Shown here: piece by piece, positions 39,120 to 46,196 of the stretch
Layout: every line of letters begins with the position of its first letter
Position numbering within the stretch: the first letter of the stretch is position 1
Source of the DNA: Escherichia coli
GTDB taxonomy: Bacteria > Pseudomonadota > Gammaproteobacteria > Enterobacterales > Enterobacteriaceae
DNA length: 64,000 nucleotides
Reading direction: 5' to 3' (one strand)
Assembly (NCBI RefSeq): GCF_045037415.1
Contig: NZ_CP173438.1
Notes under the pieces: model-generated
What the model was told of the DNA's origin: nothing
What the model saw: the letters and a program-made list of their open reading frames with translations, nothing else
The model's database searches: none
Program-made: the position numbers and the translations under genes

Positions 39120-40253
39120 TCAAAACGAAGCTAATTGACCCTGAATCCAGATTTGTTGCACATGCAGCCCGCTATCCAGCGCAACGACGCTGGCGCGTTT
39201 GCCCGGTTTAAGCGATCCCAGAACACCATCAACACCCAGCATTCGCGCCGGATGCAGCGACGCCATATGGATGGCTTCCGCAGGCGTTACGCCCGTCAAC
39301 TCGACCATGTTGCGCACTGCCGCATCGACAGACAGCGTACTGCCCGCCAGCCCACCGAACGCGGTACGGACAATGCCACCGTGCATCTGCACTTCTTCAC
39401 CACATAACGTATAGTGACCATCCGGCATCCCGGCTGCCTGCATCGCGTCGGTGATCAGTACGATCCTCTCTTTCGCACAGCAACAACAGAGCGACATTGC
39501 CGCCGGATGTACATGATGACCATCGGCTATCAGTTCCAGCCAGGCGCGCTTGTCCGTTAATCCCGCGCCAACCATTCCCGGTTCGCGGTGATGTAAACCT
39601 GTCATCCCGTTATAGCAATGCACCAGGCCGTCGGCACCAGCATCAAACGCGGCACGGGTTTGTTGCCAGGTCGCCGCGCTATGCCCCAGCATCACCCGTA
39701 CGTTTTGCTGTTTAAGATGGCGGATGGCCTGCAATGCCCCTTCTTTTTCTGGTGCCAGCGCTACCACGCGTAAGGTCTGCTGAGAAACGGCAATCAATTG
39801 ATCCAGCTCGGCAATTTCCAGCTCGCGAAACAGCTCCGGCGGATGTGCGCCTTTATTCTGCGGCGTGAAGTACGGTCCTTCGAGATAACTCCCCAGCACT
39901 TGCGCACCAGGCCCACCGCGCTGGCAGCGTAGAGCAATACGTTTCAGCGCCGCATGAATGGTATTAAGCGGCGCGGTTACGGTGGTCGGTAACCAACTGC
40001 CGACACCTTCGCGTGCCTTGTGCATTGCCAGCTTGTCGAGCGCATCCGGCGCGTCATCCATTACATCAACGCCCGCACCACCGTGTACATGGGTGTCGAT
40101 GTAAGCGGGGCAGAGCAGTTCCGCATCGCGTTCAGTCACGCCCACTGGAATCGGTTCGATTGCTGCGATTACACCGTCAGCAATACGCAACTGATGGTCA
40201 TCGAGCCATCCCTCTTCAGTCAGCAGCCTTCTGGCGCGCAGAACGTGTGTCAT
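39120..40253 (-). CDS. agaA: N-acetylgalactosamine-6-phosphate deacetylase AgaA, full length
   Basis: ORF 39120..40274; ATG at 40253 (ATGA overlap with agaF stop) gives 377 aa MTHVLRARRLLTEEGWLDDHQLRIADGVIAAIEPI...; amidohydrolase HxH motif; alternative start at 40274. Confidence 0.88.
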   Translation of the reverse strand: MTHVLRARRLLTEEGWLDDHQLRIADGVIAAIEPIPVGVTERDAELLCPAYIDTHVHGGAGVDVMDDAPDALDKLAMHKAREGVGSWLPTTVTAPLNTIHAALKRIALRCQRGGPGAQVLGSYLEGPYFTPQNKGAHPPELFRELEIAELDQLIAVSQQTLRVVALAPEKEGALQAIRHLKQQNVRVMLGHSAATWQQTRAAFDAGADGLVHCYNGMTGLHHREPGMVGAGLTDKRAWLELIADGHHVHPAAMSLCCCCAKERIVLITDAMQAAGMPDGHYTLCGEEVQMHGGIVRTAFGGLAGSTLSVDAAVRNMVELTGVTPAEAIHMASLHPARMLGVDGVLGSLKPGKRASVVALDSGLHVQQIWIQGQLASF

Positions 40254-40684
40254 ATTCCTTCCTCGACCGGACATTCCTCATGGCAGCGACCAAGTTCGTC
40301 CACCAGACTGGTTAGCCCACGGTGTCCACACTCCAGCGCCTGCACACGGAACTCTTCACCGCTTAACCCTTCGCGTTCCAGCACCATTTCCAGTAATAGT
40401 TGCAAATTTGTGCCGGTGATCACTTCACAGCCCGGTTTTTGCATCGCCAGCGTTGAAGCTACGCGAAACGGCGTGCCGCCCAGCAAATCCGTCAGAAAAA
40501 CAATGCCGTCTTCACAATCCAGTTGGGCGATGGCCTCTTCAAGCTGCGATGTAAGCAGCGCGGTGCTTGAGGTTTCTGGAAAATCGATGGCGATAAACTG
40601 CGATTGCTCGCCGAGGATTTGCTTCATTGCTTTTTCCATGCCGCTGGCAAATCCGCCATGCCCTGTCAAAATAATACTTAACAT
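40250..40684 (-). CDS. agaF: PTS mannose-family IIA component (N-acetylgalactosamine/galactosamine)
   Basis: 144 aa ORF MLSIILTGHGGFASGMEKAMKQILGEQSQFIAIDFPE... Confidence 0.88.
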   Translation of the reverse strand: MLSIILTGHGGFASGMEKAMKQILGEQSQFIAIDFPETSSTALLTSQLEEAIAQLDCEDGIVFLTDLLGGTPFRVASTLAMQKPGCEVITGTNLQLLLEMVLEREGLSGEEFRVQALECGHRGLTSLVDELGRCHEECPVEEGI

Positions 40685-40701
40685 CTAATACCTCATTGTA
40701 T

Positions 40702-41586
40702 TTAAAGGAAATGGCAGAATTTACCGACGATGCCGAGAACCACTGTCACTGCAATCAGGCGCAGCGGACTCCAGCCGCGGCGTACCAGCCAGAACATGGT
40801 CAGGGTGTAGACCAGCGGTAAGAAGGCAGGCATCAGTTTGTCGATAACATCAGCCTGTAACTTAACCACTGCGTCGCCCGCCGTGATTTCCAGCGTGGTG
40901 CTTAAACGAACATAGGTTGCCACCAGCGCGCCGATCACCGTCATCCCAACGATAGACGCCGCATGGCCGACTTTTTTGGTATTTGCTTTAATGAGTGGAA
41001 TAGCCGCCACGCCCATGCGGTAAGCATAATGCGCCAGACCAAAACGCAGCCCCAGGTGCACCACGTTGAACAGCACAATAAAGACGACAGCGCCAAGAAT
41101 AGAGCCTTGTAGCGCGAGGCTTGCGCCTATCCCGCCACAAATCGGCAGTAGCGTTAGCCAGAACATCGCATCGCCAATCCCGCCGAGCGGCGCACCGACG
41201 GCAATTTTGGTGCTCTGAATACTGTTAACGTCCTGCTTAGAACGCTCCATCGCAAGGATAATGCCGATAACAAACGTCACCAGAAACGGATGGGTATTGA
41301 AGAAACCCATATGCCCCTTCATGGCGCGCGCCAGGTCCCGTTTATTAGTGTGGATCTTTTTCAGAGCAGGCAGCAGACCGTACAACCAGCCGGAAGCCTG
41401 CATACGTTCGTAGTTGAAAGACGCTTGTAACAGCATGGAGCGCCAGGCGACGCGGTTGATATCTTTTTTCGTCAGCTCTGCGCCAATGCTCTGATCTTCA
41501 TACACGTTTTCATTGACGCCAGTCAGCAGTGTTTCTTCATTTTCGCTGACGTTCGGCAGGGTGGTTTGATTAGATGCCATCTTCAA
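40702..41586 (-). CDS. agaE: PTS mannose-family IID component (N-acetylgalactosamine-specific)
   Basis: 294 aa ORF MKMASNQTTLPNVSENEETLLTGVNENVYEDQSIGAELTKKDINRVAWRSMLLQASFNYERMQ... Confidence 0.88.
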   Translation of the reverse strand: MKMASNQTTLPNVSENEETLLTGVNENVYEDQSIGAELTKKDINRVAWRSMLLQASFNYERMQASGWLYGLLPALKKIHTNKRDLARAMKGHMGFFNTHPFLVTFVIGIILAMERSKQDVNSIQSTKIAVGAPLGGIGDAMFWLTLLPICGGIGASLALQGSILGAVVFIVLFNVVHLGLRFGLAHYAYRMGVAAIPLIKANTKKVGHAASIVGMTVIGALVATYVRLSTTLEITAGDAVVKLQADVIDKLMPAFLPLVYTLTMFWLVRRGWSPLRLIAVTVVLGIVGKFCHFL

Positions 41587-42349
41587 ATTCCTCTTTCTGT
41601 GCCGCAGGTTGAGTCGGTTCAGGAGATTTACGCAGCAGGTCGATCAGCGCCATCGCCAGCGCAGCGGCAGCAATAGCCAGCACCGGTAACTTGAGCCAGG
41701 CTGCGGCAACAAAGCCCAGGATGAAGTAGGGGATGTAGACGTTTTTCATCATGATTTTCAGCAGCACGGCAAAACCGATTGCTGGCATGATGCCGCCCGC
41801 GACGCCGAGGCCATCAATTAATCGTTGCGGCAGGACATCAATGATGGTTTTTGCATGTTCCGCGCCGAAGTAGATAGGCAGGAAAGCGCAGAGAAAATAG
41901 AAAGTGCCGAGTGCCAGCAGTGCCAGATAGTTCACGCGTTCAATGCCGCGAGTATCGGCGTTCTCCGCCATCCGGTCGCAGCGGGACATCACGCCGGACA
42001 TCACCGAGAACAGGAAGGTAATCCCCATCTGTACTGCAACAGCGAAAGGTACGGCGACACCGACCGCGACATCGGGTTTCACGCCAGTAGTAATGGCAAA
42101 CGCCGTGCCGACGATAGTACCGATAATCACGTTAGGCGGCTGTGCGCCCGCCAGCGGGGCCAGCCCCATCCACACCAGTTCCAGCGTACCGCCGGTTAAA
42201 ATACCGGTATGCAGATCGCCAAGTACCAGCCCGACCAACGGGCCGAGAACCACCGGGCGGTGCATATGGGTTAAGCCGTTAAACATATCCAGGCCAGCGA
42301 TAAAGGCGATAATGCCCAACGCAAATGCCTGCAACAGACTGATTTCCAT
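41570..42349 (-). CDS. agaW: PTS mannose-family IIC component (N-acetylgalactosamine-specific), full length
   Basis: 259 aa hydrophobic ORF MEISLLQAFALGIIAFIAGLDMFNGLTHMHRPVVLGPL...; overlaps agaE start by 17 nt. Confidence 0.88.
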   Translation of the reverse strand: MEISLLQAFALGIIAFIAGLDMFNGLTHMHRPVVLGPLVGLVLGDLHTGILTGGTLELVWMGLAPLAGAQPPNVIIGTIVGTAFAITTGVKPDVAVGVAVPFAVAVQMGITFLFSVMSGVMSRCDRMAENADTRGIERVNYLALLALGTFYFLCAFLPIYFGAEHAKTIIDVLPQRLIDGLGVAGGIMPAIGFAVLLKIMMKNVYIPYFILGFVAAAWLKLPVLAIAAAALAMALIDLLRKSPEPTQPAAQKEEFEDGI

Positions 42350-44384: not shown

Positions 44385-45194
44385 ATGAGTAATACCGACG
44401 CTTCAGGTGAGAAGCGAGTGACAGGCACCAGCGAGCGACGAGAACAGATCATTCAGCGTCTGCGACAGCAAGGGAGTGTGCAGGTTAACGATCTGTCGGC
44501 ATTGTATGGCGTATCTACTGTGACGATCCGCAACGATCTGGCGTTTCTGGAAAAGCAGGGGATCGCCGTGCGTGCCTATGGTGGCGCGTTGATCTGCGAT
44601 AGCACAACGCCGTCAGTCGAGCCATCAGTGGAAGATAAAAGCGCACTGAACACCGCGATGAAACGCAGCGTTGCGAAAGCTGCCGTTGAGTTGATTCAGC
44701 CTGGTCATCGGGTGATCCTCGACTCCGGGACCACCACTTTTGAGATTGCTCGTCTGATGCGCAAGCACACCGACGTAATTGCGATGACCAACGGTATGAA
44801 CGTGGCTAATGCGTTGCTGGAAGCGGAAGGCGTTGAGCTGCTGATGACCGGGGGGCATTTGCGCCGTCAGTCGCAATCTTTTTACGGTGATCAGGCTGAG
44901 CAATCGCTGCAAAATTACCACTTCGATATGCTGTTTCTTGGTGTAGATGCGATCGATCTGGAGCGTGGCGTCAGCACGCATAATGAAGATGAAGCCCGTT
45001 TAAACCGTCGGATGTGCGAAGTTGCGGAACGGATCATCGTGGTCACCGATTCCAGTAAGTTCAACCGTTCCAGTTTACATAAGATCATTGATACTCAACG
45101 TATCGACATGATCATTGTTGATGAAGGCATTCCTGCGGATAGTCTGGAAGGACTGCGAAAGGCTGGGGTTGAAGTGATTCTGGTCGGGGAATGA
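44385..45194 (+). CDS. agaR: DeoR-family transcriptional repressor of the aga regulon
   Basis: 269 aa [62 protein letters not shown]...; N-terminal HTH. Confidence 0.93.
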
Positions 45195-45199
45195 GAAAG

Positions 45200-45238
45200 G
45201 ATGCCCGCTGGTCAACACCAATGCGTTCGGCGGGCATT
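45200..45238. terminator. inverted repeat ATGCCCGC...GCGGGCAT between convergent agaR and yhaV (putative bidirectional terminator)
   Basis: 8-bp perfect arms with about 21-nt loop. Confidence 0.35.
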
Positions 45239-45248
45239 GTGAACACCA

Positions 45249-45713
45249 TCAATGGTTTTCTTCTGTCTCTTGGGTGAGGCTTTCCCAGTCGGCAGGAGGA
45301 TGTCCTCTTTTTAACATTTTACTGAATACGGTATAGGCATCTGTTTTTTTACCGTAGGTGCGCAGCGTGTTTTCATCGTTCATCCATCCCAGAATGATGA
45401 CTTTCTCTTTTTCACTGTAACGAAAGAAGAGACGATAGCGACCAGCACCAAATTTTACCCGTGACCAGTCTTTATTTTTCCCAGAGCCTAACGACTTGCC
45501 ATGACGGAATGCCGGTGATGATGGATTGACCGTGATATGCTCCTCAATCACTTTATGGACCACCGCCAATAACTTTGTGGCAGCTTTTCTCTGATAATTT
45601 TCAGGATCTTTTCCCTTTAATGCCTCGACTTCGGCAACTAAAGCATCGTAGGTTTCCTGAAAACAGGGATGAGCATATAGCGCCCAACCATTAACCCTTT
45701 GTGGAAAATCCAT
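45249..45713 (-). CDS. yhaV: type II toxin YhaV (ribosome-dependent mRNA endoribonuclease)
   Basis: 154 aa ORF MDFPQRVNGWALYAHPCFQETYDALVAEVEALKGKDPENYQRKAATKLLAVVHKVIEEH... Confidence 0.9.
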   Translation of the reverse strand: MDFPQRVNGWALYAHPCFQETYDALVAEVEALKGKDPENYQRKAATKLLAVVHKVIEEHITVNPSSPAFRHGKSLGSGKNKDWSRVKFGAGRYRLFFRYSEKEKVIILGWMNDENTLRTYGKKTDAYTVFSKMLKRGHPPADWESLTQETEENH

Positions 45714-46048
45714 TATTCGTCGTCGCCAATCTCATCGTCAATGTTGACGTCCATGCCAGCGACAAGTTTCTTTCCTTGTTGAATGTCGAATGGACGAGTT
45801 TTTTGCGGATTGTTCTGGATATCTGCATCCAGAAAACGCAAAAATGCATTCATAGTATGATCCTCCTGTTCATCTCCCAGTCGGCACATAAATACTTGCC
45901 CACCAGGCAGAATTTCGTAATGAATGCTGTCCAGGCCTGGCTTCAGTTTTAAGGCCTCACGCACTGGCGCGGGGATAGTTGTTTGTCCGCGTATAGTGAC
46001 CTTTGATTCAGTGGTCAGTACAGCGTTAGAGCGAGCATTAGCGGGCAT
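45713..46048 (-). CDS. prlF: type II antitoxin PrlF (SohA), AbrB/SpoVT-type DNA-binding domain
   Basis: 111 aa ORF MPANARSNAVLTTESKVTIRGQTTIPAPVREALKLKPGLDSIHYEILPGGQVFMC... with acidic C-terminus; 1-nt overlap with yhaV start. Confidence 0.9.
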   Translation of the reverse strand: MPANARSNAVLTTESKVTIRGQTTIPAPVREALKLKPGLDSIHYEILPGGQVFMCRLGDEQEDHTMNAFLRFLDADIQNNPQKTRPFDIQQGKKLVAGMDVNIDDEIGDDE

Positions 46049-46140
46049 TATTTACTGTCCTTTTACAGCCTGTTTTCTGCTCAAATTATAAGCTTGAACT
46101 AAGGTAATGCAAATGCATTATTAATGGATGTGTGGACTTT
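46049..46140 (-). promoter_or_regulatory. prlF-yhaV promoter region with palindromic candidate operator
   Basis: near-palindrome TAATGCAAATGCATTA at about 46107-46122 upstream of prlF start. Confidence 0.4.
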
Positions 46141-46171
46141 AAACAATAAAAACATGGCACTAAGGCCATGT
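46141..46171 (-). terminator. Rho-independent terminator after garD
   Basis: stem ACATGGC/GCCATGT with T-rich tract TTTTTATTGTTT on minus strand. Confidence 0.55.
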
Positions 46172-46196
46172 TTTGCGAGGGACGTTCCAAAAGAAA

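Follow-up and report, generated by a model that had tools for sequence, protein, structure and literature searches.

The window (the whole 64,000-nucleotide stretch of Escherichia coli DNA analysed here) carries, with a probability of roughly 0.93, the prlF-yhaV operon of the E. coli chromosome, a type II toxin-antitoxin module whose palindromic promoter is reportedly self-repressing. The finding is correct, already known and ordinary: prlF-yhaV is a classical type II toxin-antitoxin locus of E. coli K-12 and has been annotated automatically in thousands of genomes. Both the module and its operator are recognisable from raw sequence, and an earlier sequence-only reading of the same DNA had proposed both. 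The sole mildly new element is the conservation of the operator across the PrlF family.

Chromosomal context of the prlF-yhaV locus

The two genes of the module lie on the minus strand between agaR and garD, with a predicted hairpin on either side:

44385..45194: agaR, one flank of the module, convergent with yhaV
45200..45238, both strands: hairpin within the 54 nt that separate the convergent genes agaR and yhaV (RNA fold)
45249..45713, minus strand: yhaV, 154 aa (open reading frame, Pfam PF11663, fold model)
45713..46048, minus strand: prlF, 111 aa (open reading frame, NCBIfam, Pfam, SK1144 annotation)
46149..46174, minus strand: terminator-like hairpin of the upstream gene garD (terminator scan plus inverted repeat, a 10-bp stem followed by a T-run)
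46197..47768: garD, the other flank of prlF-yhaV

From 45150 to 46250 (1.1 kb), sequence identity is 100% to E. coli SK1144 and 97.6% to K-12 MG1655, and the SK1144 annotation gives yhaV (45249..45713) and prlF (45713..46048) the same coordinates as the open reading frames of the window. At least 80% of this interval is present in 5132 out of 5426 complete E. coli genomes, where the genes are annotated as agaR, yhaV, prlF and garD everywhere. The gene order kbaZ-agaR-yhaV-prlF-garD is also the same as in K-12. The module thus occupies the orthologous chromosomal position (garD-prlF-yhaV-agaR), between the aga and gar loci where the sequence-only reading had placed it, and it is the same locus as K-12 prlF-yhaV, in keeping with the earlier statement that the system is a known one.

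The hairpin between agaR and yhaV has RNA folding energies of -20.7 kcal/mol on the plus strand and -18.7 kcal/mol on the minus strand, and is likely a bidirectional terminator. The terminator-like hairpin of garD (-13.3 kcal/mol, z -2.25) lies just upstream of the predicted prlF promoter, which it is predicted to insulate.

We further note several features of the surrounding DNA. Up to position 47814 the window and SK1144 differ at three bases; an indel at that position, in the garD-garP intergenic region, shifts the register between the two sequences, which are otherwise separated by three SNPs over 47.8 kb. The aga cluster (39120..42349, SK1144 annotation) seems complete, with agaW, agaE, agaF and a full-length deacetylase gene; K-12 lacks part of the aga region. 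The SK1144 annotation also lists tdcR as a pseudogene with an internal stop (L032, 3449..3667; near window position 53,400, which is approximate given the indel) and two small 'hypothetical protein' fragments between rnpB and tdcR.

No other toxin-antitoxin or defence module is annotated in the stretch of SK1144 that is collinear with the window. The claim that prlF-yhaV is the only stress or defence-type module therefore holds, for this collinear stretch, as far as the word 'only' is concerned. The 'defence-type' label is not supported, and the defence-system reading was dropped because neither PrlF nor YhaV matches any family of the PADLOC models at E <= 0.01.

Family assignment and predicted folds of PrlF and YhaV

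PrlF matches the NCBIfam equivalog NF007429 over its full length with 167.6 bits (cut-off 125) and Pfam PF15937 with an E-value of 4.8e-41, and these two matches make it a member of the PrlF family. The protein is 97% identical to K-12 PrlF, with the substitutions H8N, Q39L and N88D, and it ends in the acidic C-terminal tail (DVNIDDEIGDDE) that had been described from the sequence. YhaV is likewise assigned to its family by Pfam PF11663 (E 7.5e-54, covering positions 1-137 of the 138 in the model); the NCBIfam profile search returned no model that matches it. It shares 150 out of 154 residues (97%) with K-12 YhaV, from which it differs by T31A, T145S, R148Q and T153N. Profile searches, which the sequence-only reading had proposed as a check, thus recovered both families that it had named.

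Since PDB sequence searches with PrlF and with YhaV found no relevant entry, the folds were tested on models. The AlphaFold model of YhaV, built with 55 diverse homologues, has a pLDDT of 96.5 and a pTM of 0.91. Its top PDB matches in Foldseek are PfiT (E 1.5e-4) and RelE (4fxh_B, E 1.5e-3), and further matches include RelE 4fxe_E (TM-score 0.79 on the target), HigB2, M. tuberculosis RelE1 and RelE2, and ParE-type chains. At the sequence level the superfamily is indicated weakly, by a match to Pfam ParE_toxin with an E-value of 0.41. By its modelled structure YhaV is a member of the RelE/ParE (BECR-fold) superfamily, and the RelE/ParE-like fold anticipated for the toxin is recovered.

The model of PrlF, a monomer with a pLDDT of 77, is weaker than that of YhaV. 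Its first eight Foldseek matches all come from SpoVT (2w1t), the N-domain of AbrB (1yfb), MazE (2mrn) and a Sso7c4-like 'histone-like' protein (5itm, 5itj), with Foldseek probabilities of 0.97-1.00 and rmsd values of 1.5-4.4 Å, and with E-values of only 0.03-0.25. The N-terminal ~45 residues (about 15-60) superpose on SpoVT with an rmsd of 1.5 Å over 42 columns. Two profile matches remain below threshold, namely the AbrB domain TIGR01439 (26.4 bits, cut-off 28.3) and MazE_antitoxin (E 0.0095). As modelled, the N-terminal domain of PrlF is an AbrB/MazE/SpoVT swapped-hairpin fold, in agreement with the AbrB/SpoVT domain claimed earlier. The C-terminal part, with the acidic tail, is the part that binds the toxin.

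Integrity of the toxin gene and variation in prlF

The toxicity, neutralisation, hexamer formation and DNA binding of the system are taken from the literature, and for the window proteins the analysis covered the integrity of the sequences and the conserved residues. K-12 YhaV is reportedly toxic and is said to be neutralised by PrlF (Schmidt 2007, as related in reviews). The nine family-invariant residues of YhaV (P64, R85, R94, F96, W110, N112, R118, D125 and Y127) are all present in the window protein, in a family that comprises ~984 clusters at 50% identity (E <= 0.001). According to a review, the activity of YhaV needs conserved arginines and is lost when two of them are replaced (PMC5408214). 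The toxin had been called a ribosome-dependent RNase, which is the current literature view; in that literature YhaV cleaves at the A-site and in phase with the codons, as RelE and HigB do. This description stands with a qualification, as the earliest study had observed cleavage in vitro in the absence of ribosomes (PMC5408214).

The locus could instead be a decaying or silent remnant, with a toxin that is defunct as in B-lineage strains and with PrlF as the only product that matters. Losses of this kind do occur elsewhere. In the B-lineage strain BLR(DE3), yhaV is a pseudogene with W10*, Q41* and R85W (L002, 300..764), and in Enterobacter sp. BIGb0383 it is a pseudogene with a stop at codon 2, a second in-frame stop and a frameshift (L011, 2836..3305). 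Both strains have an intact prlF and operator and keep the antitoxin as an orphan. Pseudogenes of yhaV beside an intact prlF fit the observation that chemostats select yhaV loss-of-function mutations (PMC5960147). The yhaV gene of the window, by contrast, is full-length, its product shares 97% identity with K-12 YhaV, whose toxicity has been shown by experiment, and retains all family-invariant residues, and SK1144 and two further E. coli records among those examined carry the same protein (WP_000347251.1) in their annotation. We consider a remnant highly unlikely on this evidence and retain the reading of an intact prlF-yhaV operon.

One difference from K-12 falls within a short repeat in the antitoxin gene:

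45778..45791, minus strand: interrupted 7-bp tandem repeat ATTCGAC ATTCAAC, prlF codons 87-91 (DNA alignment with K-12 and O157)

The repeat is perfect in the prlF genes of K-12 and O157 (ATTCAAC ATTCAAC), whereas the window and BLR have ATTCGAC ATTCAAC, in which the interrupting G encodes D88 instead of N88. A recurrent 7-bp duplication of TTCAACA at this repeat, which is its hotspot in K-12, constitutes the prlF1 allele, which has been selected repeatedly in K-12 evolution experiments (PMC7686311). The prlF1-type frameshift route may be less accessible in a lineage with the interrupted repeat.

We also note that E. coli and Shigella sonnei PrlF entries of 130, 137, 144 and 151 aa correspond to 7, 10, 13 and 16 copies of the 7-mer. 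These long entries contain HSTFNIQ repeats, and their shifted frame crosses the prlF stop and the yhaV start. Judged by such entries, prlF behaves as a simple-sequence variable locus in some lineages.

Predicted operon structure and promoter

The region upstream of prlF contains three predicted elements:

46058..46062, minus strand: Shine-Dalgarno-like AAGGA, 9 nt upstream of the prlF start codon (direct sequence reading)
46085..46113, minus strand: predicted sigma-70 promoter (consensus scan, 10/12 matches)
46105..46120, no strand assigned: candidate operator TAATGCA-AA-TGCATTA, the predicted binding site of PrlF (PrlF-YhaV)

The 1-nt overlap reported between the two minus-strand genes is borne out by the SK1144 annotation and falls on the single base 45713. 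The sequence of the minus strand is GAA TAA TGG at this point (TAATG), where one A both ends the stop codon of prlF and begins the ATG of yhaV. This overlap of stop and start probably couples the translation of prlF and yhaV. The antitoxin gene comes first and the toxin gene second on the same strand, a single predicted promoter lies upstream of prlF, and the pair is predicted to form a single operon.

The predicted promoter consists of a -35 element TTTGCA (46113..46108), a 17-nt spacer and a -10 element TATAAT (46090..46085) on the minus strand. Its geometry is shared by the Pseudocitrobacter, Enterobacter, Salmonella and metagenomic homologues. The operon contains a single internal promoter-like match (45741..45712, in prlF), which was treated as chance and cannot serve yhaV because its -10 falls on the yhaV start codon. 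The prlF leader also contains the CpxR-box-like sequence GTAAA-AGGACA-GTAAA (46051..46066, minus strand), which overlaps the ribosome-binding site; its halves are spaced by 6 nt rather than by 5 nt, and the second half is GTGAA in K-12.

A predicted palindromic operator conserved across the PrlF family

The palindrome noticed upstream of prlF in the sequence-only reading is a perfect inverted repeat (TAATGCAAATGCATTA, 46105..46120) with 7-nt arms and a 2-nt spacer, and its arm nearer the -10 coincides with the predicted -35. A review, with reference to Schmidt 2007, describes binding of the PrlF-YhaV complex, PrlF2-YhaV4, to a palindromic sequence of the prlF promoter (PMC7781912), and the toxin is reported to act as a co-repressor (PMC8138530). 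We infer that 46105..46120 is the palindrome bound in the published experiments. The earlier suggestion of a plausible autoregulatory operator is supported by the overlap with the predicted -35 and by the literature, and also by the occurrence of the site upstream of prlF homologues.

The repeat at 46105..46120 is, by itself, within chance expectation, and its weight comes from position and conservation. The window contains 26 perfect inverted repeats with arms of at least 7 nt and spacers of 0-4 nt, compared with 20 +/- 6 in shuffled sequence; when the 148-nt intergenic region is shuffled, such a repeat turns up in 5.6% of cases. The palindrome does not vary among the five E. coli lineages compared, and three out of the twelve bases immediately 5' of it vary between lineages. 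Several bases between the palindrome and the -10 differ in BLR(DE3), and the five SNPs that distinguish the intergenic region of the window from that of K-12 all fall outside the operator and the -10.

Two further candidate sites were rejected. TAATGC at the prlF start codon, considered as a second half-site, is not conserved in K-12, and a second match to the operator, with one mismatch, at 57531..57544 can be explained by chance, as 4 of 100 shuffles contain at least two matches.

For the wider comparison, PrlF-family loci were gathered from GTDB genomes, assemblies and plasmids, giving 16 loci and 63,329 bases. The core ATGCA-N2-TGCAT occurs 18 times in these bases, always upstream of a prlF homologue; a back-of-envelope chance expectation for a 10-base motif is 63,329 / 4^10, or ~0.06 occurrences. 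Fifteen out of the sixteen loci have the core upstream of prlF, down to a protein identity of 30%. Among the loci compared, protein identity is 63% in Salmonella, 59% in a prophage-like neighbourhood with genes for holin and lysozyme, 35-41% on plasmids of Roseobacter and Bradyrhizobium, ~35% in a genome of the Deinococcota and 30% in one of Rhizobium. The flanks of the core are mostly kept as well, in the form (T/C)AATGCA-NN-TGCATT(A/G).

The relation of the site to the promoter varies among these loci. In enterobacterial chromosomal loci the promoter-proximal half-site is the -35, with TATAAT or TATATT 16-18 nt further on. In alphaproteobacterial plasmids TTGACA lies directly 5' of the motif and the operator fills the spacer, so that the promoter register moves while the site stays. 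In three plasmid modules from gammaproteobacteria (E. marmotae IncF and two from Pantoea) the operator is present as two tandem copies 17-18 bp apart. On the E. marmotae IncF plasmid (L018, 1253..1288) and that of Pantoea sp. JZ2 (L019, 1151..1186) the copies are 18 bp apart and precede the annotated start of prlF by 194-329 nt. No convincing small ORF was found between operators and prlF in these two plasmid loci, where the leader may be long or the start mis-annotated.

The motif is absent at an orphan PrlF on a K. pneumoniae plasmid, a protein without the conserved RxQTT loop. It is also absent at the YhaV homologue of Vibrio phage O395 (L033, 1226..1909), the only one encoded in a collection of 50,697 phage records. 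This phage protein is paired with one of 64 aa (phrog_18497) that does not resemble PrlF and may be another kind of antitoxin. The motif thus tracks the DNA-binding domain of PrlF, as it is missing where the RxQTT loop or PrlF itself is missing.

These patterns bear on whether the palindrome is a repressor site at all. It could be only a -35 region, or an inverted repeat that arose by chance in the AT-rich DNA between the genes, given that similar repeats are as common in the window as in shuffles and that the promoter-proximal arm is the predicted -35. Both arms are conserved, however, beyond the one that forms the -35, and the same 12-16 bp are kept at 30-37% PrlF identity in Rhizobium, Deinococcota and alphaproteobacterial plasmids, where the promoter register is another one. 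The tandem copies 17-18 bp apart in some plasmid loci and the binding of the complex to the promoter palindrome reported in the literature (PMC7781912) argue in the same direction, and we regard a chance repeat or a bare -35 as less probable still than a remnant. Least probable is that the palindrome belongs to another regulator such as CpxR, for which CpxR-dependent repression of prlF has been reported (PMC9600279) and the leader contains GTAAA-N6-GTAAA (46066..46051), as that element is separate from the palindrome, and the palindrome accompanies prlF genes into unrelated contexts (plasmids, a prophage-like lysis-gene neighbourhood, different phyla) and is lost with the PrlF DNA-binding loop or with PrlF, a pattern expected of the cis-site of a neighbour-encoded protein. 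The conservation of the palindrome is strong support for its role as an operator.

Comparison with related systems

The K-12 prlF(sohA)-yhaV locus (Schmidt et al. 2007, J Mol Biol 372:894) has the same garD and agaR flanks, the same one-base overlap and an identical operator. It differs from the window by the three PrlF and four YhaV substitutions listed above, by the five intergenic SNPs and by the interruption of the 7-bp repeat.

The RelBE and HigBA systems resemble prlF-yhaV in their toxins, as the YhaV model superposes on RelE (4fxh_B, 4fxe_E), HigB2 and M. tuberculosis RelE. The identity is only 8-17%, however, and YhaV is ~60 residues longer and has extra helices. The antitoxins also differ, PrlF being of the AbrB/MazE type and RelB and HigA of another type. 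Conversely, residues ~15-60 of PrlF model onto SpoVT, the AbrB N-domain and MazE, including the MazE-DNA complex 2mru, but the HMM scores of PrlF are below threshold, its partner is a RelE-type toxin and not MazF, and the operator TAATGCA-N2-TGCATTA is specific to the PrlF family.

Plasmid PrlF-YhaV modules (IncF, Pantoea, Roseobacter, Bradyrhizobium) share both protein families and the operator core with the chromosomal locus. They differ from it in protein identity (30-46%) and, in some cases, in having ~22 nt between the genes and no overlap; the gammaproteobacterial ones are further distinguished by two tandem operators. Toxicity in E. coli has been reported for a YhaV homologue from Bradyrhizobium (PMC5082802). 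In addition, an assembly of SRR16693535 contains a PrlF-YhaV homologue with an operator (L026, 1028..3315; 59% PrlF identity) directly after holin (Phage_holin_2_1), phage lysozyme and DUF2570 genes, an arrangement that resembles prophage cargo.

Proposed mechanism and implications

In the mechanism that we propose for the intact operon, the sigma-70 promoter (-35 TTTGCA, -10 TATAAT) would give rise to one bicistronic mRNA, from which prlF would be translated first and yhaV next, with translation coupled through the TAATG overlap. YhaV, as a RelE-fold endoribonuclease, would cleave mRNA (on the ribosome, according to the current literature) and growth would stop, unless the C-terminal part of PrlF neutralises the toxin. 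A PrlF dimer would bind the 16-bp TAATGCA-N2-TGCATTA through its N-terminal AbrB/MazE-type domain. As this operator overlaps the -35, bound PrlF and the co-repressor YhaV would occlude RNA polymerase, and the operon would turn off its own promoter. The occlusion of RNA polymerase and the coupling of translation are the steps that we infer.

The literature searched contained no description of family-wide operator conservation or of cross-regulation between PrlF-family modules. With an operator that is near-invariant across the family, a PrlF encoded on a plasmid or prophage could repress the chromosomal promoter, and the reverse could also occur. We put this forward tentatively, as a combined proposal that is more likely to be wrong than right and of which the cross-regulation part is conjecture. 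If true, it would mean regulatory cross-talk or anti-addiction between modules that have otherwise diverged. The conservation of the operator exceeds what would be expected from protein identities of 30-45%, and it provides a ready motif for annotating the promoters of the PrlF family.
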